Assembly (NCBI GenBank): GCA_016930695.1
Contig: JAFGGD010000031.1
Location: forward strand, 26,519-90,518
Source of the DNA: Candidatus Eiseniibacteriota bacterium
Lineage (GTDB): Bacteria; Orphanbacterota; Orphanbacteria; Orphanbacterales; Orphanbacteraceae
DNA: 64,000 bases
Direction of reading: 5' to 3'
Below the pieces are notes generated by a model that saw only the letters and a list, made by a program, of their open reading frames with translations, was not told the origin of the DNA and did no database searches. The translations under genes and the position numbers were made by a program. Positions 2,274-41,214 of the stretch are shown here, one piece after another. Position 1 is the first letter of the stretch, and every line of letters begins with the position of its first letter.

Positions 2274-3743
2274 ATGCGAAAACGTTTACATCCTCTCCTT
2301 AGACGGTTTCGTCTCATTCCCGGCGCGGCGGTAATCGCGGTCGCGGCGGTCGCGGCCGGATGCGGGGGTGCTTCCGAGGAGGCGCGCGAAAGCGTTTCCT
2401 TCTCCGCCGAACGGGCGGAGGCTTTTCTCGACACGCTCGAGGAGAGGACCTTCCTCTATTTCTGGGAGACCGCCGATCCCCGCACCGGGCTCGCGCCGGA
2501 CCGCGCCCCGACCCGTTCCTTCATGAGCACGGCCGCCACCGGTTTCGCGCTCACCGCCTACCCGATCGGCGCGGAGCGGGGATACGTCACCCGGGAGGCC
2601 GCGGCGGAACGGGTCCGCACGACACTCCACTTCTTCCTTCGAGCGCCCCGGGGGACCGATCCCTCCGCCTGCGCCGGGCACCGCGGCTTCTTCTATCATT
2701 TCCTCGACCGCGAGACGGGATGCCGTTTCGGCGAGGTGGAGCTCTCCACCGTCGACACCGCCCTCCTCCTGGCCGGCGCCCTCTTCTGCCGCGGATATTT
2801 CGACCGCGACGAGCCGGTGGAGGGGGAAATCCGGGCGGCGACGGATTCCCTCTACGCCCGCGTCGATTGGACCTGGGCGCAGCCCCGCGCGCCGATGATC
2901 GTCCACGGCTGGACGCCGGAGGCGGGCTTCCTCCCCTATGACTGGCGCGGTTACAACGAGGCGATGATTCTCTACATTCTCGCCCTCGCCTCGCCCACCC
3001 ACCCTGTCGGCGCGGACGCCTACGAGGCGTGGCTCGCCGGGTACCGCTGGGGCGAGTTCCACGGCCGCGAACAGATCGGTTTCGCTCCCCTCTTCGGCCA
3101 TCAATACACCCACGTATGGATCGACTTCCGCGGCGTCCAAGATCGTTTCACTCGTGAAAAGGGAATCGACTATTTCGAGAACTCCCGCCGCGCGGCGCTC
3201 TCCCAGAGGGATTACGCCGTCGAAAACCCGGGCGGTTGGATCGGCTACGGCGAACTCGCCTGGGGGCTCACCGCCTGCGACGGACCGGTGCATGGACAAT
3301 GGACGATCGGCGGGAGGGAGAGGCGATTCCAAACCTATTGGGCGAGGGGCGCCTCGTTCACGGAGATCCAGGACGACGGCACCCTCTGCCCGTCGGCGGC
3401 CGCCGCGTCGATCGCCTTCGCCCCCGATGTCGTCCTCCCGACCCTTCTCGCCATGCGCGCCGAGCACGGCGGCCGCCTTTTCTCCGACTACGGATTCCTA
3501 GACTCCTTCAATCCGACATTCGTCCTCGACGTGCCGGTGCAGCACGGACGCGTGCACGGCGCGAAGGGCTGGTATGACACCGACTACATCGGGATCGACC
3601 AGGGTCCGATCCTGGCGATGATCGAGAACCACAGGACCGGGTTGGTATGGAGCGTGATGCGGCGCAACCCGCACATCCTACGGGGTCTCCGGGCGGCCGG
3701 CTTCACGGGCGGGTGGTTGGACACCGCGCGGGCCGACCGATGA
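2274..3743 (+). CDS. Lipoprotein glycoside hydrolase-like protein with an (alpha/alpha)6 fold (GH144 / DUF3131-like, putative endo-beta-1,2-glucanase family); paralogue of 26471..28051.
   Basis: The lipobox is AAVAAGCGG. Motifs DTALLLAGALFCRGYF, YNEAMILYILALASPTHP and DYFENSRRAALSQRDYAVENPGGWIGYGELAWGLTACDGP are shared almost word for word with the ORF at 26471. The family assignment comes from memory of GH144-type sequences. Confidence 0.6.
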   Translation: MRKRLHPLLRRFRLIPGAAVIAVAAVAAGCGGASEEARESVSFSAERAEAFLDTLEERTFLYFWETADPRTGLAPDRAPTRSFMSTAATGFALTAYPIGAERGYVTREAAAERVRTTLHFFLRAPRGTDPSACAGHRGFFYHFLDRETGCRFGEVELSTVDTALLLAGALFCRGYFDRDEPVEGEIRAATDSLYARVDWTWAQPRAPMIVHGWTPEAGFLPYDWRGYNEAMILYILALASPTHPVGADAYEAWLAGYRWGEFHGREQIGFAPLFGHQYTHVWIDFRGVQDRFTREKGIDYFENSRRAALSQRDYAVENPGGWIGYGELAWGLTACDGPVHGQWTIGGRERRFQTYWARGASFTEIQDDGTLCPSAAAASIAFAPDVVLPTLLAMRAEHGGRLFSDYGFLDSFNPTFVLDVPVQHGRVHGAKGWYDTDYIGIDQGPILAMIENHRTGLVWSVMRRNPHILRGLRAAGFTGGWLDTARADR

Positions 3744-5092
3744 CCCGGGACGGTGACCGGCGGCGCGCCCCCGGCCGTTTCACCGCCCGAACGCTCTTCC
3801 GCTTTCTCCTTTTCCTCTCGTTCGCGGCGGCGCTCGGCGTCTCCTGCCGGGACTCGGGCGACGCCCGCCGCACCCTCCGTTTTTGGGCGATGGGGAGGGA
3901 GGGGGAGGTGGTTCAGGAGCTAATGAGCGGTTTCGAGGGGGAGAACCCGGGGCTTCACGTCGAGGTGCAGCAGATCCCCTGGTCGGCGGCTCACGAGAAG
4001 CTTCTCACCGCTCACGTCGGCCGGTCCACGCCGGACGTCGCCCAGATCGGCAACACGTGGATCGCCGAGTTCGTCGCCCTCCGCGCGCTGGAGCGGCTGG
4101 ACGAGCGCGCGGCGCGCTCCGCCGGCGTCCCGGAGGAGTCTTTCTTCCCCGGCATCTGGGACACAAACATCATCGACGGCGCGCTCTACGGAATCCCCTG
4201 GTACGTGGACACACGCGTTCTTTTCTATCGAAAGGATATCCTGGCGCGCACCGGACGGGACGCCGTTCCGGAGACGTGGGAGGAGTGGCGGGAGGCGATG
4301 ATGGAGATCAAGGCGTCCGCCGATCCCGATCATTACGCCGTCTTTCTGCCGACCAACGAGCCGACGCAGGCGGTGATCTTCGGCCTCCAGGCGGGGTCGA
4401 CCCTCCTCGCGGAAAACGGCACGCGGGGCGCTTTCTCGGGCCCCGCCTTTCGGCGCGCGTTCCGGTTCTACATCGATCTCTTCCGTGACGGTCTCGCCCC
4501 GCCGGTGAGCAACACGGAGGTGTCCAACCTCTACCGGGAATTCGCGCGCGGCTATTTCGCGATGTACATCACCGGTCCCTGGAACCTGGGTGAGTTCCGG
4601 AACCGGCTCCCGGAGGAGTTGCAGGACGAGTGGGCGGTCGCGCCCCTTCCCGGTCCGGGATCCGCCGACGCGGGGGTCTCCCTCGCCGGCGGATCGAGCC
4701 TCGTTCTTTTCCGGGAATCTCGTGAAAAGGAGGACGCCTGGCGGCTCGTGGAGTTTCTTTCCCGCCCCGAGAACCAGCTCCGTTTCTACCATCTCACCGG
4801 AGACCTGCCGGCGCGCGTCGAGGCGTGGCGGGATTCCGCCCTCGCCGGCGATCCGAGAATCAACGCTTTCGAAACGCAGCTCCGGCGGGTGGTCTCCACG
4901 CCCAAGGTTCCCGAGTGGGAGCAGATCGCCACGCGGGTGATGATGCGCGCCGAGGAGGCGATACGCGGCAGCGCGCCCCCCGACTCGGCCCTAGCGGCGC
5001 TCGACCGGGACGTGGATCGGATTCTGGAGAAGAGGCGTTGGATGATCGAACGGGAGAGGGAAACCGCGGCTTCTCCGGAGGAAGGGTCGTGA
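3740..5092 (+). CDS. Sugar ABC transporter substrate-binding lipoprotein (family 1 extracellular solute-binding protein).
   Basis: The ATG at 3740 overlaps the upstream TGA (ATGA). The signal and lipobox are FLLFLSFAAALGVSC. Typical SBP_bac_1 motifs are present (IPWSAAHEKLLTAHVGRSTPDVAQIGNTWIAEFV; WYVDTRVLFYRKD). Confidence 0.85.
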   Translation: MTRDGDRRRAPGRFTARTLFRFLLFLSFAAALGVSCRDSGDARRTLRFWAMGREGEVVQELMSGFEGENPGLHVEVQQIPWSAAHEKLLTAHVGRSTPDVAQIGNTWIAEFVALRALERLDERAARSAGVPEESFFPGIWDTNIIDGALYGIPWYVDTRVLFYRKDILARTGRDAVPETWEEWREAMMEIKASADPDHYAVFLPTNEPTQAVIFGLQAGSTLLAENGTRGAFSGPAFRRAFRFYIDLFRDGLAPPVSNTEVSNLYREFARGYFAMYITGPWNLGEFRNRLPEELQDEWAVAPLPGPGSADAGVSLAGGSSLVLFRESREKEDAWRLVEFLSRPENQLRFYHLTGDLPARVEAWRDSALAGDPRINAFETQLRRVVSTPKVPEWEQIATRVMMRAEEAIRGSAPPDSALAALDRDVDRILEKRRWMIERERETAASPEEGS

Positions 5093-5982
5093 GCGGGATC
5101 GTCGAACGGCGGCAGAGCCGGGCGGCGTGGTTCTTCCTCACGCCGGCCTTCTTCCTGATCGTGGTCTTCTTTTTCCTCCCCATCCTGGCCGGTTTCGTTC
5201 TCAGCCTGACCGATTTCGATATCTACTCCATCGGGTCCCTGAAGAACGCGCGTTTCGTGGGGTTCCGCAACTACGCGGGGACCCTCCGGGGCGGGGAGTT
5301 CTGGAACGCGCTCCGGAACACGGCGTATTTCGTTTTTCTGGGCGGGCCCCTCTCGGTGCTCACCTCCTTGGCGGCCGCGCTCCTGGTGAACGCGCGGCTC
5401 GTCCGCTTCAAGGGAGTTTTCCGGACCGTCTATTTCGCGCCGGTCGTCACCACGCTGGTGGCGGTCGCGATCGTCTGGCGCTATCTGTACCACCCGCGCT
5501 ACGGCCTCCTCAACTTCGCGCTGGCGAAGTGCGGCGTCCCCGCCGTGGACTGGCTCGGCGACCCGGCCTGGGCGATGCCCGCCATCATTCTGATGTCCGT
5601 CTGGAAGAACTTCGGCTACAACATGCTCATCTTCATCGCGGGGCTGCAGAGCATACCGGAGGAACTCTACGAGGCGGCCCGCGTCGACGGCGCCGGCTTC
5701 CTGCGGAGCTTCCGCCATATCACCCTCCCCGGCCTCGCGCCGACCTTTCTCTTCGTCAGCGTGCTCACCATGATCGGCTCCTTCCAGCTCTTCGCCGAGC
5801 CTTACGTGATGACCCAGGGGGGACCGCTCCGGAGCACCACCAGCGTGATCCTGTTGATGTACGAAGAGGGTTTCCGATGGTGGCGCCTCGGTAAGGCGTC
5901 GGCGATCGCTTTCCTCCTCTTCGTGATCGTCATGGCCGGGACGATGATCCAACTGCGGTTCCGCCGGGAGGAGCAGGAATGA
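5089..5982 (+). CDS. Sugar ABC transporter permease (MalF/UgpA-like).
   Basis: The GTG start overlaps the SBP stop (GTGA). There are multiple transmembrane segments and the EAA-loop-like motif YEAARVDGAGFLRSFRHITLPGLAP. Confidence 0.85.
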   Translation: MSGIVERRQSRAAWFFLTPAFFLIVVFFFLPILAGFVLSLTDFDIYSIGSLKNARFVGFRNYAGTLRGGEFWNALRNTAYFVFLGGPLSVLTSLAAALLVNARLVRFKGVFRTVYFAPVVTTLVAVAIVWRYLYHPRYGLLNFALAKCGVPAVDWLGDPAWAMPAIILMSVWKNFGYNMLIFIAGLQSIPEELYEAARVDGAGFLRSFRHITLPGLAPTFLFVSVLTMIGSFQLFAEPYVMTQGGPLRSTTSVILLMYEEGFRWWRLGKASAIAFLLFVIVMAGTMIQLRFRREEQE

Positions 5983-6800
5983 GGAGGAAGCTCGGCGCGC
6001 CGGTTCTCTACGCGATGCTCCTTTTGGGGGCGGTGGTGACTCTTACCCCTCTTCTCTGGATGATCGCGGCGTCCTTCATGCACACAGGCGAGGCGGCGAC
6101 CGTCCCGCCCCGCTTCATCCCCCGCGAGGCGACCCTCGAACATTACCGGGCGCTTTTCACCCGCCTCGACCTGACGCGATGCCTGCTGAACAGCTCGATC
6201 ATCAGCGTCTCGGTGACCCTTCTCTCCCTGCTGATCAATTCCATGGCCGGCTACGCCTTCGGGAAGCTCCGTTTTCCGGGACGGGAACGCCTCTTCCGCG
6301 TTCTCCTCATGGGGCTGATGATCCCGGCGCAGGTCGGCATGCTCCCCCTCTTCCTTCTTCTCAAGCAGATGGGGCTCGTGAACACCTACGCGGGGGTCTT
6401 CATTCCTTACCTGGCGAACATCTTCGGCATCTTCCTCATCCGCCAGTACGTGCAGGGGGTGCCGGACGATCTTCTCGACGCGGCGCGCATCGACGGCGCC
6501 GGCGAGTTCCGCATCTTCCGCGTCGTGGTGCTCCCCCTGATCCGTCCGATTCTGGTCACGCTTGCGGCGTTCACCTTCATCAGCGTTTGGAACGACTTCC
6601 TCTGGCCGCTCATCATGCTGAGCGACGAGGCGAAGTACACGCTCCCGGTGGCGCTGGCGGGCCTCGTCGGCGAGCACGTGCAGGACACGGAGCTGATGAT
6701 GGCCGGCTCGGTGATCACCACCCTCCCGGTTCTCGCCGTCTTCCTCTTCTTCCAGAGGGTCTACGTAAAGGGGATCATGGCGGGCGGGGTGAAAGGTTAG
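5979..6800 (+). CDS. Sugar ABC transporter permease (MalG/UgpE-like).
   Basis: An ATGA overlap joins it to the upstream permease. The EAA motif LLDAARIDGAGEFRIFRVVVLPLIRP is present. No ATPase gene sits in the operon, so the ATPase is presumably shared and encoded elsewhere, as with MsmK. Confidence 0.85.
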   Translation: MRRKLGAPVLYAMLLLGAVVTLTPLLWMIAASFMHTGEAATVPPRFIPREATLEHYRALFTRLDLTRCLLNSSIISVSVTLLSLLINSMAGYAFGKLRFPGRERLFRVLLMGLMIPAQVGMLPLFLLLKQMGLVNTYAGVFIPYLANIFGIFLIRQYVQGVPDDLLDAARIDGAGEFRIFRVVVLPLIRPILVTLAAFTFISVWNDFLWPLIMLSDEAKYTLPVALAGLVGEHVQDTELMMAGSVITTLPVLAVFLFFQRVYVKGIMAGGVKG

Positions 6801-6807
6801 AAGACCG

Positions 6808-9800
6808 ATGAAAAATGGGCTCGCCCTTTTTCTTCTCGCCGCCGTCCTCTCGATCGTTTCGTCCGCCGGCGCGGCGGACACCGTCTCGGGGACGGAGACG
6901 ATCCTTCTCGACGACTTCGCAAGCCTCGATGGATGGACCGCCCATCCCTCCGACGGGGTGGAGGCGGTTCTCCGCGAGGAGAACGGCGCGCTCCGCGTCG
7001 ATTTCCGTTTTCTCTCCGGCGCCGGCTACGCCGTCTTCCGCAAGGATTTCGCCGTCAATCTCCCGGAGAACTACGCCTTCACCTTCCGCGTGCGCGGCGA
7101 CGCGCCTCCGAACCATCTGGAGTTCAAGCTGATCGACGCGACCGGCGAGAACGTCTGGTGGTCGGTTCTCCGGGACCACGAATTTCCGAACGAGTGGGAG
7201 ACGATCCGGATCAAGAAGAGGAAGATCTCCTTCGCCTGGGGACCGGCGGGCGGGGGCGAACCGTCGGAGATCGCGGCGATCGAGTTCGCCGTCACCGCCG
7301 GGAGCGGGGGTTCGGGGACGGTCTGGATCGACGACCTCGCCCTCACGCCCCTCCCGCCGCCCAATCCGAATCCCCCCGCGCCGGTCGTCGCCGGCTGTTC
7401 GTCCTTCCGGCCGGGACATGAACCGGAGAAGGCGATCGACGGGGACGATAACACCTATTGGAGTACTGTCGAAGGCGACACCGATCATTGGATCGAATTC
7501 GATCTGGGCGTCCCCCGGGAACTCTCCGGGCTGTATGTACTGTGGCATGTTCGTCCACGTAAGATCGATATTCGGGTTTCGGATGATGGAAACGAATGGC
7601 GCCTGATACGCGATGCGAAATGGCGAACAATCTACTGCGGTGGTGTAAATTTCTATAGATTGGAATTGGTCTTTCTGCCCGAGACGGAGGCGACCAGGCT
7701 TCGATTGGATATGAAGTCTACACATCTTGGGATTAAAGAAATACGGATCCAACCGCTCGAATGGGCGGCGACGAGAAACGACATCTTCGAGAGGATCACG
7801 GAGAACTCGCCCCGGGGGATGTACCCGAGAGGGATGACCGGCGAGGCGGTCTACTGGACGACGGTCGGCGCCGACGGCGGAATCGTCAACGGATTGATCA
7901 GCGAAGACGGGGCCGTGGAGGTCGGGCCGGGATCGTTCTCCATCGAGCCGTTCCTATTCGATGATCTCTATACTACCGGTTGGGACGGATCGGAGATCAC
8001 TTATTCCCTCAAGGAGAGTCTCTTTCCTGTTCCGACGGTGACCCGACGACACCGCGACCTTCTTCTTGAAATCACCGCTTTTGCGGTGGAGAAGGAGGCG
8101 GCATCATCAATGGTCATGCATTATCGATTGAGAAACAAAAAGAGATATCCCCAAAGGGGCCAGTTCCTATTGGCTCTCCGGCCTTTCCAGGTCAATCCTC
8201 CCTATCAGTTTCTGAATGTAACCGGCGGGACGGCGAGAGTGGATTCGATCGAGAATAGCGGATCGAAGGTGCGTGTGAATGGAAGGAAATGGGTATTTTT
8301 CTTGCGAAAACCGGATGGTTCTTTTCCCGCCGTTTTCGAAAAGGGAATGAGGATCAAGATGTTTACGGAATCGCGTTGGGGTAATGGATACATTCCTTTT
8401 TGCAAAGACTGGGATTCCGTGACCGATCCCTTCGGCGCCGCGTCGGCTGTGTTCGTCTACCCCTATTATATTCCCCCCGGCGAAGAGATGCGTGTCGATT
8501 GGGTAATCCCTCTCGACGGTGAGCCGATCCTTCCGGAGGAGGAGGGAGAGGCCGCCGCCGCGGAATGGGTCGACCGGGAACTGGAGAAAGCGATCGAGAG
8601 ATGGCGGGAACGCCTCGGACCGGTGACGATCGACCTCCCCGACAAGGAGGTGGAAAACACGCTGAAGAGCCAGATCGGCTACATCCTGGTGAACCGCGCC
8701 GGTCCCGCGATCCGTCCCGGGACGCGCTCCTACGCCCGCTCCTGGATACGGGACGGGGCGCTCACCTCCTCGGCGCTCCTCCGCCTCGGGATCGACGAGC
8801 CGGCTCGGGAGTTCCTCGAATGGTTCGCGCCGCACCAGTACGAGAGCGGCAAGATCCCCTGCGTCGTCGACGACCGGGGCGCCGATCCCGTTCCGGAGCA
8901 CGACAGCTCAGGCGAGTTCCTCTTCCTGATCGCCGAGATCGTTCGCTATACGAAGGATCGCGCGCTCGCCGATGAGATGTGGCCCCGCGCCGAGGCGGCG
9001 GCGGCGTACCTCGACTCCTTGCGCGGCACGAGGCGCACCGACGAGTACCGTACGCCGGAGAAGAGACACTTCTTCGGGCTCCTTCCCCCTTCGATCAGCC
9101 ATGAAGGATACTCGGCGAAACCGATGCACTCCTACTGGGACGACTTCTGGGCGCTCCGCGGATTCCGGGACGCGGCCTACCTCGCCGGCGTCGTCGGGCG
9201 CGAGGCGGAGAGGGAACGCTGGGCCGCGGTCGCGGAGGAGTTCGCCGCCGATCTGGCCGCCTCCATCGCGGCGGCGATGGAGCACCACGGGATCGACTAC
9301 GTTCCCGGATGCGCCGACCTGGGAGATTTCGATCCCACGTCGACCACAATCGCTCTCTCTCCCGTCGGCGCCGGGGATCTCGCCCCCGAGGGGGCCATCC
9401 GCCGCACCTTCGAACGGTACGGGGAGTTCTTCGAGGAACGGCGGACCACCGGCAAGTGGGAGGCGTTCACCCCCTATGAGCTCCGGAACATCGGCGCCTT
9501 CGCCCGTCTCGGCATGCGGGGGGAGATCGCCGGGATGCTGGAGTGGTTCCTCCGTTACAGGCGGCCGCAAGGTTGGAACCACTGGGCGGAAGTGGTCTGG
9601 AAAGAGGAGAGGCTCCCCCGTTTCATCGGCGACATGCCGCACACATGGGTCGGCTCCGACTTCATCCGTTCCGTGCTCGACATGCTCGCCTTCGTCCGCG
9701 AATCGGACGGGGCGATCGTCGTGGGAGCGGGAATACCCGTCGAATGGCTGGCCGGCGAGGGGGTGAGCGTGAAGAATCTACAGACCCCCTACGGGACGAT

Positions 9801-10002
9801 CGGATTCATCATGCTGCACGAGGGGGAGGAGACGCGAATCGACGTGGAGGGGACGGCGATGCCCCCCGGCGGAATCGAACTCCGCGCCCCCTTCGATGGA
9901 TCGATCGAGTCGGCGACCGTGAACGGCGCGCCCGCCTCGCCCGGCCCGGAGGGGGAAATCCTCGTGCGCGCCCTTCCGGCGCGGGTCGTGCTGAAGCGGT
10001 GA
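6808..10002 (+). CDS. Secreted multidomain protein: signal peptide, CBM-like beta-sandwich, Pro-rich linker, F5/8 type C (discoidin) domain, and an (alpha/alpha)6 glycoside-hydrolase-like domain (GH15-like, tentative).
   Basis: The signal peptide is MKNGLALFLLAAVLSIVSSAGA. The discoidin motif is KAIDGDDNTYWSTVEGDTDHWIEFDL. The C-terminal half carries SWIRDGALTSSALLRLG, reminiscent of the GH15 WxRD region; the family is unconfirmed. Two markedly lower-GC patches (about 7540-7770 and 7960-8460) lie inside the gene. Confidence 0.6.
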   Translation: MKNGLALFLLAAVLSIVSSAGAADTVSGTETILLDDFASLDGWTAHPSDGVEAVLREENGALRVDFRFLSGAGYAVFRKDFAVNLPENYAFTFRVRGDAPPNHLEFKLIDATGENVWWSVLRDHEFPNEWETIRIKKRKISFAWGPAGGGEPSEIAAIEFAVTAGSGGSGTVWIDDLALTPLPPPNPNPPAPVVAGCSSFRPGHEPEKAIDGDDNTYWSTVEGDTDHWIEFDLGVPRELSGLYVLWHVRPRKIDIRVSDDGNEWRLIRDAKWRTIYCGGVNFYRLELVFLPETEATRLRLDMKSTHLGIKEIRIQPLEWAATRNDIFERITENSPRGMYPRGMTGEAVYWTTVGADGGIVNGLISEDGAVEVGPGSFSIEPFLFDDLYTTGWDGSEITYSLKESLFPVPTVTRRHRDLLLEITAFAVEKEAASSMVMHYRLRNKKRYPQRGQFLLALRPFQVNPPYQFLNVTGGTARVDSIENSGSKVRVNGRKWVFFLRKPDGSFPAVFEKGMRIKMFTESRWGNGYIPFCKDWDSVTDPFGAASAVFVYPYYIPPGEEMRVDWVIPLDGEPILPEEEGEAAAAEWVDRELEKAIERWRERLGPVTIDLPDKEVENTLKSQIGYILVNRAGPAIRPGTRSYARSWIRDGALTSSALLRLGIDEPAREFLEWFAPHQYESGKIPCVVDDRGADPVPEHDSSGEFLFLIAEIVRYTKDRALADEMWPRAEAAAAYLDSLRGTRRTDEYRTPEKRHFFGLLPPSISHEGYSAKPMHSYWDDFWALRGFRDAAYLAGVVGREAERERWAAVAEEFAADLAASIAAAMEHHGIDYVPGCADLGDFDPTSTTIALSPVGAGDLAPEGAIRRTFERYGEFFEERRTTGKWEAFTPYELRNIGAFARLGMRGEIAGMLEWFLRYRRPQGWNHWAEVVWKEERLPRFIGDMPHTWVGSDFIRSVLDMLAFVRESDGAIVVGAGIPVEWLAGEGVSVKNLQTPYGTIGFIMLHEGEETRIDVEGTAMPPGGIELRAPFDGSIESATVNGAPASPGPEGEILVRALPARVVLKR

Positions 10003-10018
10003 CGGCGCCGCGAGACCT

Positions 10019-10723
10019 TTATTCGTAAATCGCTTTCCGCACCACTTCGCGCCAGACCGCGTACCCCTTCTCGTTCATGTGGAGCATGTCCTCGAGGAAG
10101 AGTTCCTCGATCGGCTCCCCCTTCTCGTTCAGCATGGGCGAGGCCACGTCGATGAAGGCGAGAAGGGTGTCGGCGTCGCACGCCTCGCGCAGCAGCCGGT
10201 TCACGCGGATCGTCTCCGGAAGAAACTCCCGCCGGGAGGGGCTCGGTTTGACGGAGATAACGTGAATCTTCGTGCCGGGGAGGGACGCGCGGACGAGGGA
10301 GACGAACGAGTCGAATGCCGCGAACACCTTTTCCGGCGGCACGCCGAGGGCGATGTCGTTGTCCCCCTCGTAGAGGAGGATCGCCGAGGGGCGGTAGGGG
10401 AGAACGATCCTCCCCGCGAAGAAGAGGGCGTCCAGCATGGTGCTCCCGCCGAACCCGCGGGGAATCACCGTCGCCGGCGCGAGGTCCGCGGCGAGAGTGG
10501 GGTGCCACATCCGCATACTGGAGCTTCCGATGCAGAGGAGCGCTCCTTCGGGTGGGAAGCACTCCCGGTCGGCCGCTTCGAAGGCGGCGATGTCCCCCTC
10601 GAAGCGACGGGGGTCGGGAAAGGGGGCGCCGGCGCGGGCGGGCGCGATAGCTCCGATCACCAGAAGCAGAAGGACGGCCGCCGCGGCGCGCGCCCCCCGG
10701 TCCTCCCTTGCGGATCCGATCAT
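10019..10723 (-). CDS. SGNH/GDSL-family hydrolase (esterase/deacetylase-like), secreted.
   Basis: The signal peptide is AAVLLLLVIGAIAPARAGA. The motifs are LLCIGSSSM (the GDS(L) block) and ILLYEGDNDI...DMLHMNEKGY (the DxxH block). GGAGG lies upstream of the ATG at 10723, which overlaps the GH1 stop (ATGA). Confidence 0.75.
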   Translation of the reverse strand: MIGSAREDRGARAAAAVLLLLVIGAIAPARAGAPFPDPRRFEGDIAAFEAADRECFPPEGALLCIGSSSMRMWHPTLAADLAPATVIPRGFGGSTMLDALFFAGRIVLPYRPSAILLYEGDNDIALGVPPEKVFAAFDSFVSLVRASLPGTKIHVISVKPSPSRREFLPETIRVNRLLREACDADTLLAFIDVASPMLNEKGEPIEELFLEDMLHMNEKGYAVWREVVRKAIYE

Positions 10724-12120
10724 CCTCGTTCCTCCCCGTCGAGAACGCCGCCGTTCGTCTCGATCACTTTCCGGTAGAAGCGGCCGCTCCTCTTCCACGT
10801 TCGCTTTTGGGTGGCATAGTCGACGTGAAAAACGCCGAACCGTTTGGTGAACCCCCGGCTCCATTCCAAATTGTCCATGAGGGACCAGACGAAGTAGCCG
10901 CGCAGGCCCGCGCCGCGGCGGATCGCCTCGCGCGCCGCTTTCAGGTGGGAACGCAGGTAGGCGACGCGGAGTGGATCCTCCACCGTCTCTCCCTCCGCGC
11001 GGGGCGGATCGGGGAAAGCGGCGCCGTTCTCCGTCACGTAGAGGGGGATGCTCCCGTAGAGCTCCTTCAGCCGCAGAAGAACGCGCGTGAGCCCTTCGGG
11101 GTGGACCTCCCAACCGGTTTCGGTATAAAGAGAGTCCTCCAAGCGCACCGACGATTCGCGATCCGGCAGCGCGCCGCCGTCGCGCCGCACCACGGCGCGC
11201 GTGTAGTAGTTGACGCCCAGAAAATCGATCGGTTCGCCGATGAGCGCCAGATCCTCGGGCGTGTAGTCGACCCACGCCGGGCCGTAGATATCCGGGAGAC
11301 CCGCGGGCGGCCGCCCGAGCAAGACCGGATCGAGATACTGGCGGTTCATGTAGATGTCGCCCCGTTCCGCCGCCGCCCGGTCTTCTTCGGCGTCCGAGGC
11401 CGGCTCCTTGGGCTCCAGGTTGGCCACCAGGCCGATGGGCGCCGCCCCCTCGGCCCGCCCCGCCCGGAGGGCGAGGCCGTGGGCCCGAAGGAGGGCGCGC
11501 GAGACCTTCGCCGTCTCCGCCGCGCTCCGATGTCCGGGGGGATGTACTCCCGCCATGAATCCAGCATGGGCGATCACCCAGGGCTCGTTGATCGTCATCC
11601 ACATGGAGACCCGATCGCCGAGCGCGCGGAAGGCCACCGACGCGTAGGCGGCGAATCGTTCCTCCATGGAGGGATCGAGCCATCCGCCGCGCTCGTCCAG
11701 AGCGGCGGGATGGTCCCAGTGGTAGAGGGTGGCGCAGGGTCGGATCCCCCGATCGAGAAGGAGATCGACGAGGCGGGAGTAGAAATCGAGGCCCGCCCGG
11801 TTGATCGAGTTCCCTCCATCGGGGAAGATCCGGGACCAGGCGATGCTGAAGCGGTAGGCGCCGAGCCCCATCTCCTTCATGAGATCCGCGTCGCCGCCGG
11901 CGCGCCGGTAGTGATCGGATGCCACGTCGCCGGTGGAGCCGTCCTCGGTCCCGCCGGGGGCGTGGGTGAAACGGTGCCAATTGCTCGGCCCCGCCCCGTC
12001 CGCCAGAGGAGATCCTTCGATCTGATAGGCGGAGGTCGCCGCCCCCCAGAGAAAACCCTCGGGGAAACGGGAGGAGCGCGGAGGGGGATCGTTCTTTTCA
12101 GCCCAGGATGATTCGGACAT
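10720..12120 (-). CDS. GH1 beta-glucosidase.
   Basis: FPEGFLWGAATSAYQIEG and the nucleophile motif YVTENGAAF are canonical GH1 signatures. The length (466 aa) is typical. Confidence 0.9.
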   Translation of the reverse strand: MSESSWAEKNDPPPRSSRFPEGFLWGAATSAYQIEGSPLADGAGPSNWHRFTHAPGGTEDGSTGDVASDHYRRAGGDADLMKEMGLGAYRFSIAWSRIFPDGGNSINRAGLDFYSRLVDLLLDRGIRPCATLYHWDHPAALDERGGWLDPSMEERFAAYASVAFRALGDRVSMWMTINEPWVIAHAGFMAGVHPPGHRSAAETAKVSRALLRAHGLALRAGRAEGAAPIGLVANLEPKEPASDAEEDRAAAERGDIYMNRQYLDPVLLGRPPAGLPDIYGPAWVDYTPEDLALIGEPIDFLGVNYYTRAVVRRDGGALPDRESSVRLEDSLYTETGWEVHPEGLTRVLLRLKELYGSIPLYVTENGAAFPDPPRAEGETVEDPLRVAYLRSHLKAAREAIRRGAGLRGYFVWSLMDNLEWSRGFTKRFGVFHVDYATQKRTWKRSGRFYRKVIETNGGVLDGEERG

Positions 12121-15100
12121 GATGGGTTTGGCCGTCCTCGTCGAAGGGGATGCGAACGGAGCCTTTTTCCACCGGAAGGGGGCGGCCGTCCAATTCCGCC
12201 GCCGTCACCTTTTCCGCGCGGCGGTTCGGGTTCTCCATCTCGATTTCGTAGACCGTCTCTCTCCCCGGAACCCGGAATCGAACGGAACAGCGCGGCCACT
12301 CGTCCGGCACGCGCGGCCGGATCCGGAGCGCCTTCCCTCCCTCCAGGCGGAGGCCCAGGATCGATTCGACGGCGACCCGGTACATCCAGGCCGCCGAGCC
12401 GGTGTACCAGGTCCAGCCGCCGCGCCCCAGATGGGGCGGCTCGCCGTAAACGTCCGCGGCGATCACATAGGGCTCGGCGCGGTAGACGGCGACCCCTTCC
12501 GGCGAGCCGGCGCGCGTGACCGGCGAGAGCATCTCGAGGAGATCCGCCGCGCGTCCGCGCCGTCCTCGCTCGGCCAGGGCCGCGACCAGCCAGAGAGCGG
12601 CGTGTGTGTACTGCCCGCCGTTTTCGCGGACGCCGGGCAGGTATCCCTTGATGTATCCGGGATCCTGCGGCGTGTCGGCGAAGGGAGGAGTGAGCAGGCG
12701 GATCAGGCCATCCTTTTCCGAGACCAGGTGCTTTTCGGCGGAGTCGAGCGCTCGTTCGGCGCGATCCGGGGGCGCCGCGCCGGAGAGGACCGACCACGCC
12801 TGGGCCAGCGCGTCGATGCGGCACTCCGCGCTCTCCCGCGATCCGAGTGGAGTCCCGTCGTCGTAGAAGCCCCGGAGATACCAGTCGCCGTCCCAACCGG
12901 AATCGTTCAGCGCCTTCCCGAGTCCCTCGCGCGCGGCGCGGTACCGGGCGGCGCGTTCGGCGTCCCCACGCTCCTCGCAGACCGGGATGAATCGTTCCAG
13001 CAGGGCGAAGAGGAAGAACCCCATCCAGACGCTTTCCCCTTTCCCCAGGCGTCCCACCCGGTTCATGCCGTCGTTCCAGTCCCCGGTGCCGAAGAGGGGG
13101 AGCCGGTGATCGCCCACGGCGAGAGAGAGATCGATCGCCCGGACGCAGTGGTCGTAGAGGTCGCCGGACAACCCGGATGGGCGGGGTCGGACAAACACTT
13201 CGTCGACGCCCTCCGCCGGAAGAGGCGCCGTCAGGTAGGGAATCGGGACGCGCCAGACGGCATCGTCCCCGGACGTTTCGACATAAAAAGTCGTTATGTA
13301 TGGTAACCAGAGCCGATCGTCGGCGAACCGCGTGCGGATGCCCGCGTCTTCCGGGGGATGCCACCAGTGCAGGACGTCTCCCTCGACGAACTGATGCGCC
13401 GCGTGAAGGAGGATCTGTTCGCGGGTTTTTTCCGGGCGAAGGTAGACGAGCGCCGAGGCGTCCTGGATCTGATCGCGGAAGCCGAAGGCGCCGCCGGACT
13501 GGTAGAGGGCGGTTCTCCCCCGTAATCGGCAGGCGACGGCCTGATAGGGGAGCCAGCCGTTCACCATGATGTCGAGGGCGGGGACCGGCGTTCGGATGCA
13601 CAGGCCGGATCGCATCCGCCGCCACTCCTCCCGCGCGACGTCCAGGGCGCGTTCGACCGCCCCGTCCGCCCGGTACCGCGCGATCAGCGACCGGACCTCC
13701 TCCGCATTCGATCCCTCTCCGAAGAGGAAGGCGCACTCCGCCGAACCGCCGGGCGGGAGTTCGATCGATATTTTTTCCGTGAAGCAAGGATCCAGGTTCG
13801 CCCCCGTCTCTCCCCCCGGCGGATCGTCGTGGAGGAGCGCCGCCGGACGGGCCGCGTCTCCTCCGGCGCCGAGAAAGGCGGCGCGGTCGCAACTGTAATA
13901 GGTCGGACCGGTCGCGGCCGGGGCGACGGCGGCGGCGAATGTCACCGCCCGCGCGAAGGAGCCGGCGAAACGGTTTTCCGCGAGGAGCGCCTTCCCGTTC
14001 GGTTCGAAACGGGTGACTACGAAGCGGCCGCTCTCCTCGGGGGTCGCGCCGAGCACCAGACGGCGATGCGAAAAAAGGCCGAGCCGGCGCGTTTCACCGC
14101 TCCGGTTCGTCAGGCGCACGCGTGTGATCTTCACCGGGTCCCGCGTGGGGACGAAGAATGTGACCTCCTGCTCGATGCCGAGGCTCTTTCCCCGGAAGAG
14201 GGTGTATCCGAATCCGTGCCGTACCTCGCACTCTTCCGGGCCGTCGGCCGGTCCGGGAAGGGGGGACCGGAACTCGCCGCTCTCCTCGTCGCGCATGTAA
14301 AGCGCCTCGCCGTGGGGATCGCGCAGGGGATCGTTCGCCCATGGGGTCAAACGGTGCTCGCGGCTGTTCCCGCTCCACGTGCAACCGGCGCCTCTCTCGC
14401 TCACCAGGAAGCCGACTCGGTCGTTGGCGATCACGTTGATCCACGGGAGGGGGGGAAGACGGAGTTTTCCGTCCGCCCCGGGGCGGAGGCGGATCACGTA
14501 CTCCGAGCCGTCCGGCGTGAATCCCCCGAAGCCGTTGGGGAAAAGAAGATCGCCGTCTCCTTCGGGGAAGACGCTCGCGCCTCCGGCGTCGTGTCGCGCT
14601 TTCCCCGCCGTTTCCCCGGCGGGGGGTACGATCTCCACGGCGCCTCCGCGGCAGAGATCGGGCATCTCCCTCGTAAGGACCAGGCGGGCCGCCGCCTCGA
14701 GGAGATCCGCCCTCTCCGCCGGTATCGTTTCCCGGTCGATGAAGTGCACCGTCCCTCCGTCGTCGAACGGTTTCTCCGGAGATTGGGCGAGTGACGGGTC
14801 GTTCGTGAAAACGACGAGGGGAAAATCGATCCCCGACTTTTTCCAGTAGCGAAGGGCGCTTCGCATCTCCGGGAGAAGGAGGGCTCCCTCCGGAGAGTCG
14901 GCGCGCAGGACGATGTAGGGCGTACCGGGAGAGAGGCCGAAACGCGCGAGGTCCTCCGGCCGTCCCCGAAGACATTCGAGCACCTCCGGCGCGGCCCGAA
15001 GGGAACGTTGGCCGTAAAGAATCGCTCCGGCGAGCGCCTCGTAATACTCCGCCCGGTCCTCCCCGAGTTCCGAGTCGTCGATGCATCCGCGCGCCCTCTC

Positions 15101-15985
15101 CCGGGATCCGGCGAATGCGCGCTCGGCCGCGCCTTCATCCGTCCAGGTCCGGACCAGCGCGAGGGCGTCCTCTTCGACGGGCGCCACGCCCATCAGGAAG
15201 AGGAAGCGAGCCTCGCCGCCCGGACGCAGGAGCGCCTTTCGACGGAGCGCGAAAACGGGGTCGAGCACATTGCCGGAAGAACCGGAGAGGGGCGTGCCGG
15301 CGCTGAGGGCGAGCGGGTCCGCCGGGGATCGACCACGGCCGAGAAAGAGGGCGCGGTCCGTCTCGAACTCGAGCTTTCCCGCGCCGGAGAGCGCGGCGAA
15401 CATCCGGGGATGTCGCTCCGAACCGGACCGGCCGCGGCGTCTCGCGAAAAGCGCGCCCGTCCGGGAGTCGTGCGCGGTCTGCACGAAGAGCTTGGAGAAC
15501 GCCGGGTGGGCGGCGTACGCGCCTGGTTGATCCAGCACGATCTCCGCGTACCCGGTCAGTTCCAATCGACGCTCCCGAACGGACCGGTTGGCGAGCGTGA
15601 TTCTGCGGATTTCGAGGTCCGCGCCGGTGGGTACGCACGTCTCCATGCGGGCATCGATTCCCCCCTGCCGGCGGTCGATGGTGACCACCCCCGGTTCCCA
15701 CTCCGCGCGGTAACCCGCGGCCCCCGATGGGAGGGGATGCCTGCCGATCGACCAAAACCTCCCGCTCTCTTCGTCCCGAAGATAAAAGAGGAGTCCGGTG
15801 TCGTCCTCGAGGGGATCGCCGCTCCAACGGGTCAGCGCGTAATCCTCCCAGCTCGACCTTCCCGTTCCCGCGCCGGTCATGAGCACGGTATACCGGCCGT
15901 TGCCAAGAAATCGGGCGGGAGGGGTCCTCTCTCCACGTCCGTCGAGGGGGGGAAAGTGGGAAGTCTGTCGCAACGACCTCTCCAT
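12098..15985 (-). CDS. GH94-family glycoside phosphorylase-like enzyme, 1295 aa, with two tandem N-terminal beta-sandwich domains and a C-terminal (alpha/alpha)6 catalytic domain. 1,2-beta-oligoglucan phosphorylase is the preferred guess.
   Basis: GH94 N-domain-like motifs occur twice (FLGNGRYTVLMTGAGTGRSSW and VGFLVSERGAGCTWSGNSREHRLTPWANDP). The catalytic-domain motifs are FGFRDQIQDASAL and GTGDWNDGMNRVG. Its size is close to the roughly 1100-aa SOGP-type GH94 enzymes. Confidence 0.75.
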   Translation of the reverse strand: MERSLRQTSHFPPLDGRGERTPPARFLGNGRYTVLMTGAGTGRSSWEDYALTRWSGDPLEDDTGLLFYLRDEESGRFWSIGRHPLPSGAAGYRAEWEPGVVTIDRRQGGIDARMETCVPTGADLEIRRITLANRSVRERRLELTGYAEIVLDQPGAYAAHPAFSKLFVQTAHDSRTGALFARRRGRSGSERHPRMFAALSGAGKLEFETDRALFLGRGRSPADPLALSAGTPLSGSSGNVLDPVFALRRKALLRPGGEARFLFLMGVAPVEEDALALVRTWTDEGAAERAFAGSRERARGCIDDSELGEDRAEYYEALAGAILYGQRSLRAAPEVLECLRGRPEDLARFGLSPGTPYIVLRADSPEGALLLPEMRSALRYWKKSGIDFPLVVFTNDPSLAQSPEKPFDDGGTVHFIDRETIPAERADLLEAAARLVLTREMPDLCRGGAVEIVPPAGETAGKARHDAGGASVFPEGDGDLLFPNGFGGFTPDGSEYVIRLRPGADGKLRLPPLPWINVIANDRVGFLVSERGAGCTWSGNSREHRLTPWANDPLRDPHGEALYMRDEESGEFRSPLPGPADGPEECEVRHGFGYTLFRGKSLGIEQEVTFFVPTRDPVKITRVRLTNRSGETRRLGLFSHRRLVLGATPEESGRFVVTRFEPNGKALLAENRFAGSFARAVTFAAAVAPAATGPTYYSCDRAAFLGAGGDAARPAALLHDDPPGGETGANLDPCFTEKISIELPPGGSAECAFLFGEGSNAEEVRSLIARYRADGAVERALDVAREEWRRMRSGLCIRTPVPALDIMVNGWLPYQAVACRLRGRTALYQSGGAFGFRDQIQDASALVYLRPEKTREQILLHAAHQFVEGDVLHWWHPPEDAGIRTRFADDRLWLPYITTFYVETSGDDAVWRVPIPYLTAPLPAEGVDEVFVRPRPSGLSGDLYDHCVRAIDLSLAVGDHRLPLFGTGDWNDGMNRVGRLGKGESVWMGFFLFALLERFIPVCEERGDAERAARYRAAREGLGKALNDSGWDGDWYLRGFYDDGTPLGSRESAECRIDALAQAWSVLSGAAPPDRAERALDSAEKHLVSEKDGLIRLLTPPFADTPQDPGYIKGYLPGVRENGGQYTHAALWLVAALAERGRRGRAADLLEMLSPVTRAGSPEGVAVYRAEPYVIAADVYGEPPHLGRGGWTWYTGSAAWMYRVAVESILGLRLEGGKALRIRPRVPDEWPRCSVRFRVPGRETVYEIEMENPNRRAEKVTAAELDGRPLPVEKGSVRIPFDEDGQTHHVRIILG

Positions 15986-16112
15986 CGAAGTCTGTAACTC
16001 CTAAAACTACAGATAGTTGTGCGAAGGAGGGGGCGGCGGGCCCCTTTTCCCTCGCGCAGGGCTCTCTCGGACCCCCGCGCATGGTGCCTTTTTATTCACT
16101 TTCCATCAAGGC

Positions 16113-16157
16113 TTGACATAAGTATGTCAGATGTGCGATCATTTGTAAACGGTTACA
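16113..16157. promoter_or_regulatory. Divergent promoter region between the GH94 operon and lacI, holding a -35-like TTGACA and two operator-like palindromes.
   Basis: TTGACA is at 16113-16118. A perfect palindrome TGACATAAGTATGTCA lies at 16114-16129. A LacI/CcpA-type site TGTAAACGGTTACA lies at 16144-16157 (consensus TGNAANCGNTTNCA). All three lie in the only AT-rich stretch of a 70% GC region. Confidence 0.45.
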
Positions 16158-16252
16158 TCGAGTCGTGGGATCAGTCCGGGTGGGCCGGGATCCCAAAGAT
16201 CGAGCCTCGTCCGGCCCGAGAGATAAGATTCCCGACCTTGAGGAGCATCTCT

Positions 16253-17320
16253 ATGGCGACGATCAAGGACGTGGCCCGCGAAGCTGGCGTGTCGGTTGCC
16301 ACCGTTTCCCGTGTGTTCAATGACAGCCCACTGGTGAGTGAGATCACCACCAGCCACGTTCTCGAGGTGGCGCAACGGCTGGATTATTGGCCGAACGGAG
16401 CGGCGCGGAGCCTCAGCACCAATCGCACCGGCACGCTCGGTGTCGTCCTGCCCGACCTTTACGGTGAATTCTTCTCCGAGATCATCCGCGGGATCGACAC
16501 CGCGGCCCGCGAAGAGAAATACCAGATCCTCCTCTCCAGCTCCCACGCCGCCGAAGCGGAACTGGTTTCCGCGGCGCAGGCGATGCGCGGCCGGATCGAC
16601 GGGCTGATCGCCATGGCGCCTCACGTCGACTCCGCGAGATCGCTGGTCGATTTCGCACGGCACTTTCCCGTCGTCCTTCTCAACCCGGGAATGCCCGCGG
16701 AAAACTGCTCCGTCATCTCCATCGCGAATTTCGAGGGAGCCCGCGCCATGGTCCGCCATTTGATCGGGGTGGGCCACCGGCGCATCGCCATGGTGCTCGG
16801 CCCTTCAGGGAACGTGGACGCCGAGGAGAGGCGGAGGGGTTACCGCCGGGCGTTGGATGAAGAAGGGATCGAGGTCGATCCCGCCTTGGAAATCGAAGGC
16901 AATTTCGATCAGGAATCGGGCTACGAGAGCGCGGCCCATCTTCTCCGGCTCGATCCGCGCCCCACCGCGGTTTTCGCCGCCAACGACTGGATGGCCTTCG
17001 GACTGCTGAGCGCGCTCGCCGACGCGGGGATCCGGGTCCCGCAGGAGATGGCGATCACCGGTTTCGACGACATGAGCATCGCCGCCTTCCTCAGTCCTCC
17101 CCTCACGACCGTGCGGGTGGACGCGGTGGAGCTGGGGAAGAGGGCCGTGCAGCTTTGGTTCGACTCGATTCACGCTCGGGAAGAGGAGCGGTTTTTCGCG
17201 TATCAGGTCCTGCCGACCTCTCTCGTGGTTCGCGGCTCCTGCGGCGCGCCGAACGGAACGGCGGCGCCGGAACGTTCGGGCCGATGGACGAACCACGGGA
17301 GGGAAGAAGAACGGGAATGA
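16253..17320 (+). CDS. LacI-family transcriptional regulator.
   Basis: The N-terminal HTH MATIKDVAREAGVSVATVSRVFN is canonical. AGGAGC lies 6 nt upstream. A periplasmic-binding-fold sugar-binding core follows. Confidence 0.9.
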   Translation: MATIKDVAREAGVSVATVSRVFNDSPLVSEITTSHVLEVAQRLDYWPNGAARSLSTNRTGTLGVVLPDLYGEFFSEIIRGIDTAAREEKYQILLSSSHAAEAELVSAAQAMRGRIDGLIAMAPHVDSARSLVDFARHFPVVLLNPGMPAENCSVISIANFEGARAMVRHLIGVGHRRIAMVLGPSGNVDAEERRRGYRRALDEEGIEVDPALEIEGNFDQESGYESAAHLLRLDPRPTAVFAANDWMAFGLLSALADAGIRVPQEMAITGFDDMSIAAFLSPPLTTVRVDAVELGKRAVQLWFDSIHAREEERFFAYQVLPTSLVVRGSCGAPNGTAAPERSGRWTNHGREEERE

Positions 17321-17433
17321 GGACGGGGAGCCGGGCACGACGCCCGGCCATTTCTTTTCGCGTATTGCCGAACGGGGAAGGATCGATCGGTCTTCCGCTC
17401 CGGCGGGACCGGCGAAAGCAGGAGGATGGAGGA

Positions 17434-19329: not shown

Positions 19330-19418
19330 CGGGATCACCGGCGGGCGGGGGCGGAGGTCCGCCCCGCGCCCGCCGTGGAGGGAGGGGGCCGATCCCCTTC
19401 GGCGAGAACGGAGAGACG

Positions 19419-40411: not shown

Positions 40412-40518
40412 TAATTGATTAAACCAAATTCTTGCCCCCTCGCGTCCCCGGAAAGACGAGGAGGAGGGGAAAAAAGTGAAAATTCCCATTTTTTCGCTCT
40501 ATAGAGGCGAAAAAAGTA

Positions 40519-40580
40519 TTGACGCCTATTTCGATGGGGCCTAATGTGGGCCCAGGTGGGTGGAAGTGGCGCATAATGGG
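40519..40580 (+). promoter_or_regulatory. Pmra-like promoter for the dcw cluster with an MraZ-box direct-repeat array.
   Basis: TTGACG at 40519-24, a 17-nt spacer, TAATGT at 40542-47. Four direct repeats sit at exact 10-bp phasing: GTGGG (40546), GTGGG (40556), GTGGC (40566) and ATGGG (40576). This matches the GTGGG-N5 MraZ operator architecture described in E. coli, Bacillus and Mycoplasma. Confidence 0.5.
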
Positions 40581-40749
40581 TTTTCTGAGCGTTCGCCACA
40601 ACCGCAAAAAACGTCCGGGATTGATCGCCTTTCGCTGATAGCCCTCCTGAGCGCTTTGCGAGCGCTCCACCCGATGGGGCCAGTATAGGAACGGCGACCC
40701 GGAAGCGCAACCTCCGGCGCGCCCCTTCCACCACCGCATCGGAGGCGAA

Positions 40750-41214
40750 GTGGGCAGACTACTCGGTCGCTACCAGGCCACATTGGACGAGAAGGGGAGA
40801 ACCAACATCCCCGCCCGCATCCGGAGGGTTCTCTCACCCGACCCGGAATCGCCGATCATCATCACCCGCGGATACGATGACTGTCTCGCCGTCTATCCCC
40901 TCGCCGAATGGGAGGCGGTGGAAAAAGACCTTCGCGCCCTCCCCTACAACGTCGGCAACACTCGTCTCTTCGCGCGCGAAATGGCCTCCCACGCCGTGGA
41001 GGCCGGACTGGACCGGTCGGGGCGGATCCTGATCCCCCGGGAACACCGCGAGTGGGCTCACCTGGAGAAGGACATTCTCGTCCTCGGCGTCATCACGCAT
41101 CTTGAACTGTTCAATCCTGAAATATACGAGCGGTATCGATCCGGATACGGCATGACCTACGAAGGGGTCGCCGAGGAGATGCAGAAGTACCGCTCCACCG
41201 GCCGGCAGGAATGA
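40750..41214 (+). CDS. mraZ: Transcriptional regulator MraZ.
   Basis: GTG start with GGAGG upstream. MGRLLGRYQATLDEKGRTNIPARIR, followed by the second DxxGR repeat (GLDRSGRILIPREHRE). Confidence 0.85.
   Translation: MGRLLGRYQATLDEKGRTNIPARIRRVLSPDPESPIIITRGYDDCLAVYPLAEWEAVEKDLRALPYNVGNTRLFAREMASHAVEAGLDRSGRILIPREHREWAHLEKDILVLGVITHLELFNPEIYERYRSGYGMTYEGVAEEMQKYRSTGRQE

Follow-up and report, generated by a model that had tools for sequence, protein, structure and literature searches.

Two low-GC segments in a discoidin domain-containing protein gene of an Eisenbacteria genome: a candidate mosaic gene

The gene analysed here, which occupies the open reading frame (ORF) 6808..10002 on the plus strand of a 64,000-nucleotide stretch of Candidatus Eiseniibacteriota DNA (assembly GCA_016930695.1, contig JAFGGD010000031.1, positions 26,519 to 90,518; hereafter the 64-kb window), encodes a discoidin domain-containing protein and contains two sharply delimited patches of low GC content. 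The reading we favour, tentatively and with a probability of about 0.45, is that this gene, hereafter the query, is a compositional mosaic in which the two patches result from segmental replacement by a divergent, lower-GC allele of the same gene. Its product is a 100% match to the NCBI protein P0001, annotated as 'discoidin domain-containing protein [Candidatus Eisenbacteria bacterium]' and derived from a 138-kb contig of a metagenome-assembled genome (MAG). The limits of the patches were set by a two-state hidden Markov model (HMM) applied along the ORF to the GC content of the third codon positions (GC3), and the domains were delimited on an AlphaFold2 (AF2) model of the product built with 29 homologues as input, whose mean predicted local distance difference test score (pLDDT) is 83.8. 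The segments of the gene and the domains of the modelled protein are the following.

6808..10002, plus strand: discoidin domain-containing protein gene, complete ORF, 1064 aa.
6835..7446 (codons 10-213), plus strand: host-like 5' part, comprising the N-terminal beta-sandwich, a Pro-rich linker and the first discoidin strand; GC3 0.87.
7447..7761 (codons 214-318), plus strand: low-GC patch 1, nearly the whole discoidin domain; GC 49.5%, GC3 0.52.
7762..7953 (codons 319-382), plus strand: high-GC island, which spans the helical linker and the strands that open the second beta-sandwich; GC3 0.91.
7954..8520 (codons 383-571), plus strand: low-GC patch 2, most of the beta-sandwich lying before the (alpha/alpha)6 barrel; GC 51.0%, GC3 0.57.
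8521..9999 (codons 572-1064), plus strand: host-like 3' part (segment E), comprising the long helix, the barrel and the C-terminal beta-sandwich; GC3 0.86.
aa 32-181 (AF2 model): N-terminal beta-sandwich.
aa 194-316 (AF2 model): discoidin (CBM32-like) domain.
aa 323-344 (AF2 model): short helical linker.
aa 350-570 (AF2 model): second beta-sandwich.
about aa 613-960 (AF2 model): (alpha/alpha)6 barrel, preceded by a long helix.
after the barrel (AF2 model): C-terminal beta-sandwich.

The sliding GC content, the GC3 windows and the HMM agree on the reality of the two patches, which are somewhat wider than the intervals 7540-7770 and 7960-8460 given in a preliminary description of the same DNA. 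Patch 1 measures 315 bp and patch 2 567 bp, the island between them 192 bp (64 codons), and the ORF outside these three segments has a GC3 of 0.87 and a GC content of 67.5%. In sliding 150-nt windows the GC content is 0.45-0.53 at about 7450-7750 and 7975-8500 and 0.62-0.75 over the remaining ORF, and in 30-codon windows the GC3 passes from about 0.9 to about 0.5 in the patches; the binomial probability of such runs under the background GC3 is 1e-17 for patch 1 and 2e-24 for patch 2. The shift towards A/T third positions that the preliminary description reported is plain from codon pairs whose ratios flip between the patches and the rest of the gene (TAT/TAC 10/3 versus 2/16, GAT/GAC 15/5 versus 11/34, TTT/TTC 8/9 versus 2/34). 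The Lys/Ile/Asn-rich character of the encoded peptide is equally clear: the residues FYMINK make up 25% of the patches versus 12% in the same columns of the orthologues, Lys 4.8% versus 0.6% and Ala 4% versus 12%, and both peptides quoted earlier are found in the translation. The location proposed for the patches, the distal half of the discoidin domain and the inter-domain region, has to be corrected, since on the AF2 model patch 1 is nearly the whole discoidin domain and patch 2 most of the beta-sandwich.

The boundaries 213/214, 318/319 and 382/383 placed by the HMM, three of the four breakpoints, adjoin invariant or near-invariant motifs (D211..W218, P316 and E380-P381-F382), and the 3' edges of both patches coincide with the ends of structural domains in the AF2 model, at 316-318 and 570-571. 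Crossovers between diverged homologues would be expected at such positions, and so would illegitimate joins that selection could retain. An embedded RNA or regulatory element was also considered as the cause of the patches and rejected: they have no Rfam match at E <= 0.1, promoter-like or terminator-like sites are not notably in excess within them, and no RNA family, promoter or terminator signal accounts for them.

The comparison with orthologous DNA sequences bears on 81 genes, namely 78 usable loci out of 80 from species-representative genomes and the three closest homologues. The GC3 difference between patch and flank is -0.011 and -0.022 in these orthologues (sd 0.041) and -0.35 and -0.31 in the query, which is 7-8 sd off. 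In the 78 more distant orthologues, which belong to equally GC-rich genomes, the deepest differences are -0.13 and -0.11; a codon feature common to the whole family is ruled out by these dips, which are shallow at most, so that the pattern reflects an event rather than a family trait. Furthermore, the same architecture, both domains included, is found in the 119 best homologues, which are 48-56% identical to the query, and in the 80 genomic loci, with 87-100% of the length aligned. The patches are therefore not added domains: they are like-for-like versions of domains present in every orthologue, and the domain capture suggested in the preliminary description is not what the family displays.

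A relative-threshold HMM detects milder GC3 dips in some of the other orthologues. They lie at query codons ~490-620, the distal end of the beta-sandwich, in L008, L020, L035 and L047, where they often accompany lineage-specific insertions, and at query codons ~965-1060, in the C-terminal beta-sandwich, in L018, L019, L020, L032, L052, L070 and L076. In the case of L052 the GC3 drops from 0.97 to 0.53 over codons 967-1044, which may reflect a frameshift in a long-read assembly and not biology.

The patches also differ from their counterparts in protein sequence. The identity of the query to the 119 homologues is 54-58% in the native parts, and 32% and 38% in patches 1 and 2, respectively. Expressed relative to segment E, these identities amount to 0.59 and 0.62, versus per-protein family means of 0.82 and 0.81 (sd 0.05), so that the patches are 1.3-1.4 times more diverged in protein than expected; a triplet estimate makes the terminal branch of the query 2.7 times longer in the patch columns, the ratio being 1.0-1.4 in equally isolated control proteins. 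Differences at four-fold sites between the query and its closest relatives amount to 0.33-0.55 outside the patches; inside them they reach 0.58-0.75, apart from a single patch-1 value of 0.41, and are near saturation given the compositions. Indels add to this divergence. Patch 1 carries changes of -2, +3 and +5 aa that are unique to the query, the length of the stretch being constant in the other homologues checked, and the spacing from W to PE[ST] is 26 residues in the query and 18 in nearly all of roughly 140 motif-matching homologues; patch 2 has an insertion of +6 aa. The query-specific insertions (7630-7660, aa 274-283, and 8344-8391, aa 513-528) are the sole regions inside the patches with a pLDDT below 50, and in the model they appear to form new loops at the surface of the two domains.

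Despite this divergence, the family-invariant residues within the patches are all kept, including W218, D232, E238, W264, E294, R458-P459, Q461, P464-P465, G473-G474 and D540, which indicates that the segments are under purifying selection. The fold is predicted with confidence within the patches, and the combination of this confident AF2 fold with the retained residues leads us to consider both segments as functional homologues of the domains they stand for; judging from the model, the protein presumably remains active, as a variant whose carbohydrate-binding surfaces are altered. Patch 1 keeps the family-specific motifs WIxxDLG, LPETE and EIxIQPLEW as well, from which it follows that its origin lies within this family rather than in an unrelated discoidin protein.

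The behaviour of the three codon positions gives an indication on the history of the patches. When the GC content of positions 1 and 2 (GC1+2) is regressed on GC3 across the orthologues over the same columns, the slope is about 0.3; the z value of the query is -0.2 for patch 1, on the line, and -1.6 for patch 2, slightly below, these deviations being individually non-significant. A decay of GC3 in place would leave the constrained positions 1 and 2 lagging behind, above the line, whereas the patches lie on or below it. The absence of such a lag therefore points to a long equilibrium near 50% GC or to an upward amelioration.

Directly observed are the compositional break and its uniqueness among the orthologues, the excess of divergence and the indels, the shift that codon positions 1 and 2 have undergone in full, and the maintenance of the invariant residues; the recombination itself, the nature of its donor and its timing are inferred. 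The two segments would have been swapped, in frame and position for position, for their counterparts in a divergent allele of this gene, and this allele would have evolved for a long time at roughly 50% GC in an unsampled donor. The replacement of the discoidin domain by patch 1 would be specific to this genome. The beta-sandwich of patch 2 would represent a divergent, lower-GC allele type that exists in an attenuated form in the nearest Eisenbacteria relatives; the attenuation of the dip in these relatives implies that this replacement would be either old, having occurred in the ancestor of the clade and been followed by partial amelioration, or due to a donor inside the clade. A different, lower-GC history is thus supported for both segments, and best for patch 1, which from its sequence appears unique to the genome, at compositional equilibrium near 50% GC, distinct by its indels and devoid of clade signal. 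Patch 2 fits three readings: an old ancestral replacement, a donor that would be an unsampled lower-GC member of the clade, and divergence in place.

The nearest relatives are L081, L082 and L083, the syntenic closest homologues, which come from independent NCBI MAG, ENA metaSPAdes and Logan assemblies, L081 being an Eisenbacteria MAG. Their identity to the query in the native segments is 62-68% (0.62-0.68 in the 5' part, 64-67% in the island and 0.65-0.67 in the 3' part). Their GC3 is normal in the patch 1 columns; in the patch 2 columns it is 0.70-0.73 versus 0.80-0.88. The corresponding patch-2 differences of -0.19, -0.17 and -0.08 are the first, second and fourth lowest of the 81 orthologues, and the HMM places the dip at query codons 402-581 in L081 and 422-509 in L083. 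As a dip recurs at the place of patch 2 in three independent assemblies, the phenomenon is not confined to one assembly. The neighbouring sister pair, L084 and L085, is wholly normal. The uniform GC content of close relatives, which the preliminary description regarded as evidence against a mosaic, is thus found for patch 1 and not for patch 2.

The segment of patch 2 is also unusually variable among these three relatives, whose mutual identity is 0.51-0.63 there versus 0.77-0.87 in the host-like 3' part, with differences at four-fold sites of 0.47-0.81 versus 0.34-0.45. In the case of L082 (P0002, 6001-9156), this segment is 47-52% identical to its clade-mates and 55% identical to the distant homologues P0012 and P0010, while its flanks are 77-92% identical to the clade-mates; between L081 and L082 the four-fold-site differences reach 0.81 in the segment versus 0.45 in the flanks. 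These sequences hint that the patch-2 segment may have been exchanged or replaced in L082, within the closest clade and independently of the query.

The phylogenetic signals of the two patches seem to differ. In neighbour-joining bootstraps based on the native (non-patch) columns, the query is sister to {P0002, P0019, P0030} in 89%. Patch 1 alone places it with its own clade in 0-7% of the bootstraps, versus 8-27% for native windows of 105 columns. Two other tests are less discriminating: the identity-rank correlation between patch and non-patch columns is -0.10 in the query versus 0.33 +/- 0.21 in controls, with equally isolated controls overlapping the query, and the same overlap is found in a held-out-clade affinity test. 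Shared A/T third positions were considered as the remnant of an AT-rich ancestor and rejected, unrelated orthologues of moderate GC content showing an equal association that reflects amino-acid and site effects.

Several observations weigh against segmental replacement. Patch 2 places the query with its own clade in 30-42% of the bootstraps, gamma distances and Dayhoff-6 recoding included, versus 13-33% for native windows of 189 columns, and it has 3 of 8 clade-specific residues, as compared with about 37% in the native segments and about 10% by chance. Long-branch attraction does not seem to be the obvious cause of this affinity: the terminal branch of the query is the longest of the patch-2 tree (1.15 vs 0.28), yet its partners there are P0019 and P0030 and not the other long branches. 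The patch-2 signal would equally be expected under vertical descent if change had been accelerated and AT-biased. Furthermore, the divergence of patch 2 from the family consensus grows with the depth of the GC3 dip, from L082 to L081 and L083 and then to the query, a graded series which also fits a gradual process acting in place. Homologous recombination between such different sequences meets mechanistic obstacles, and it would have to produce four in-frame junctions; the donor or its lineage is absent from every collection searched, the best identity of the patches being <= 43%; and no independent copy of the sequence was found in the metagenome contigs or in the gene index. The recombination with a lower-GC source put forward in the preliminary description keeps the support of the composition, the divergence and the patch-1 indels, and is complicated by the grouping of patch 2 with its own clade and by the dips of the relatives.

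Part of these observations are those expected if no foreign DNA were involved and the least-constrained domains of the protein had evolved fast in place, under relaxed or diversifying selection and towards a lower local GC equilibrium, perhaps because AT-biased mutation was no longer offset there by codon selection or by GC-biased gene conversion. Both segments are indeed the least conserved of the family (their identity in ordinary pairs is about 0.8 of that of the host-like 3' part), in the nearest relatives the same segment has a weaker dip and is over-diverged, as a graded series, patch 2 keeps clade synapomorphies together with its clade affinity, milder dips occur in the variable regions of L008, L020, L035 and L047, and no donor was found in the databases searched. 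We nevertheless regard such divergence in place as unlikely, though deserving serious consideration. No known process would produce sharp drops of GC3 from 0.87 to 0.52-0.57 on either side of an untouched island of 192 bp at 0.91; the shift at codon positions 1 and 2 equals or exceeds that at position 3, contrary to what ongoing decay would give; none of the 78 more distant orthologues has a dip near the depth seen in the query; the segments are not neutral, their invariant residues being kept; and patch 1 has multiple unique indels and is without clade signal.

A further possibility, to which we attach a rather low probability, is that the discoidin and beta-sandwich domains are hypervariable cassettes held at a locally lower GC equilibrium in one Eisenbacteria clade, possibly through repeated exchange from a pool of lower-GC alleles, or through a divergence that blocks recombination and GC-biased gene conversion.

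The much lower-GC donor envisaged in the preliminary description was sought in several collections, and none was identified. With aa 200-560 as query, no protein above 43% identity emerged from 5.8 billion proteins in a word-indexed search; among 1.84 billion cluster representatives, searched exhaustively with HMMER, the best match had 41% identity over the region; and BLAST searches of the separate segments against 300 retrieved proteins peaked at 39% (patch 1) and 43% (patch 2). Patch 1 searched alone gave no closer candidate. Plasmids matched at <= 40% identity and phages not at all in tblastn searches, and the metagenome contigs contained neither related peptides in a peptide-pattern scan nor the DNA of junction 2 in an exact search. 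The exact protein is missing from the gene-position index, and homologues of AT-richer amino-acid composition are no nearer to the patches than the others.

These negative results also bear on an artefact of metagenome assembly or binning, in which the consensus would switch four times between the Eisenbacteria gene and the orthologue of a co-occurring organism of about 50% GC. The sequence is indeed that of a MAG, the exact protein is present on one contig only, the lack of an independent copy agrees with such an origin, and conserved motifs, where shared k-mers are likeliest, hold three of the four junctions. However, the four switches would all have to be in frame and colinear, and with <= 40% amino-acid identity in the patches and a GC3 of 0.5 versus 0.87, shared k-mers of assembler length are implausible. 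Furthermore, no patch-like orthologue exists anywhere in what was searched, including the 1.84 billion representative proteins, the affinity of patch 2 is with the Eisenbacteria clade and its dip is present in the three independent assemblies of the relatives. An artefact is for these reasons decidedly improbable.

The hypervariability falls in two domains of the binding type, in a protein that is probably secreted, and this could finally suggest a programmed diversification, by a diversity-generating retroelement (DGR) or by gene conversion from cassettes, or else the capture of a discoidin domain from an unrelated protein. We consider these origins very unlikely indeed. Neither a repeat of the patches nor a paralogous fragment turned up when the 64-kb window was searched by blastn and for repeats; the patches, at 315 and 567 bp, are longer than the known DGR variable regions; and the differences extend beyond adenine-templated positions. 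As for an unrelated discoidin domain, the family motifs conserved in patch 1 and the outcome of the search with patch 1 alone speak against it.

Segmental replacement from a divergent allele would place the query among the mosaic genes, which arise by partial horizontal gene transfer and alternate host-derived and donor-derived segments (Boc and Makarenkov 2011, PMC3241670). As in such genes, host-like and foreign-like blocks alternate here in one intact frame, the breakpoints lie in conserved stretches and the composition is discontinuous; the blocks are sharp, the ORF is colinear with its homologues and the pattern exceeds what the orthologues display, but no donor lineage matches the patches better than the flanks. 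The classic mosaic genes are pbp2x, penA and tet(O/W). Their donors are identifiable and diverged by 5-25% in DNA, whereas the patches described here have <= 43% protein identity to anything known and one of them still bears the phylogenetic signal of the host clade. Another point of comparison is the central domain of the flagellin fliC, which is compositionally atypical, lies between conserved flanks and is regarded as horizontally exchanged. The query resembles proteins of this type in its conserved flanks, its domain-sized hypervariable segments, its raised synonymous divergence and atypical GC content, and in the variability of the same segment across relatives; unlike fliC, it encodes a glycoside-hydrolase-like (GH-like) enzyme in a sugar-utilisation locus. 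The amelioration of horizontally acquired DNA, reportedly formulated by Lawrence and Ochman in 1997 as a framework for whole genes and islands, offers a last parallel. As expected of an ameliorating import, patch 2 and its counterparts in the relatives lie slightly below the line relating GC1+2 to GC3, with a GC3 between about 0.5 and 0.87; the tracts are, however, intragenic and of 300-600 bp, and the z values of -0.2 to -1.6 are individually non-significant. The case would be a further example of a known phenomenon, the mosaic gene, clean and unusually extreme, on a single MAG contig.

As to the product itself, the discoidin domain is recognized by F5_F8_type_C (PF00754) at aa 197-306, with 61.8 bits against a Pfam gathering cut-off of 28.2, and its sequence matches in the PDB are CBM32-type modules. 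The N-terminus is hydrophobic and resembles a signal peptide, which suggests that the protein is probably secreted. A Foldseek comparison of the model with the PDB gives a probability of 1.0 for GH94 phosphorylases and for GH15, GH116 and GH78-type structures, with identities of 10-13%. The architecture is in this respect like that of F5/8 type C domains borne by (alpha/alpha)6 hydrolase or phosphorylase folds (GH94, GH15, GH116-like), as seen in the Pfam match, the CBM32-type PDB matches and the GH94-like fold, but its identity to solved enzymes is only 10-13%, and the discoidin protein is without an assigned CAZy family. The identity being so low, the designation as a glycoside-hydrolase gene used in the preliminary description holds at the level of the fold only.

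The query, flanked by two ABC permease genes and a GDSL esterase gene, belongs to a sugar-utilisation locus at 2274-17320 that comprises the following other genes.

2274-3743: PF10091 'Glycoamylase' (GH144-like) gene.
3647-5092: solute-binding protein gene.
between the solute-binding protein gene and ORF 6808..10002: two ABC permease genes.
10019-10777, minus strand: GDSL esterase gene.
10720-12120, minus strand: GH1 gene.
12098-15985, minus strand: GH94 gene, 1295 aa.
16019-17320: LacI gene.

The order of this locus, from the GH144-like gene to the LacI gene, is kept around the closest homologues (L081-L087). The GH144-like, GH94 and GH1 genes together with the ABC transporter resemble the loci for beta-1,2-glucan and sophoro-oligosaccharides that the Nakajima group has described (PMC12102758, PMC12369401). 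The neighbouring GH144-like gene is without sequence similarity to the discoidin-protein gene. Downstream of the LacI gene, the ORF 17155-19329 combines a CBM9-like domain with a C-terminal sorting domain of type IX secretion, and the ORF 18951-22085 corresponds to a TonB-dependent receptor with a carboxypeptidase-regulatory-like domain; the listed coordinates of these two ORFs overlap and their starts are uncertain.

Over the whole window, the GC content in 200-nt windows has a mean of 0.665 (sd 0.046), and a rough HMM scan of its other high-GC3 open frames, not every one of which was verified, revealed no comparable internal patch. The sole other stretch as AT-rich as the patches is 40251-40650, with a lowest 200-nt GC content of 0.445. 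It corresponds to the 5' end of the minus-strand ORF 38492-40498 and to the intergenic space before the plus-strand ORF 40651-41211, and is presumably a divergent promoter region.

In conclusion, if the segmental replacement is real, the gene would be an unusually clean intragenic mosaic in an uncultured phylum, in which domains were swapped for very divergent versions of foreign composition while the catalytic core remained native. Were the patches an artefact, they would be a useful caution on the consensus sequences of MAGs. If the two domains were instead hypervariable cassettes, they would mark a hot spot of diversifying selection on carbohydrate-binding surfaces, whose compositional footprint could be used to locate such spots in GC-rich genomes. 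The swap, if real, would show that single domains can be exchanged between alleles far past the usual divergence limit of homologous recombination, and the discoidin and beta-sandwich surfaces would then be the evolvable, and probably the specificity-determining, parts of an uncharacterised GH-like family situated in a conserved locus with GH144-like, ABC transporter, GH1 and GH94 genes.

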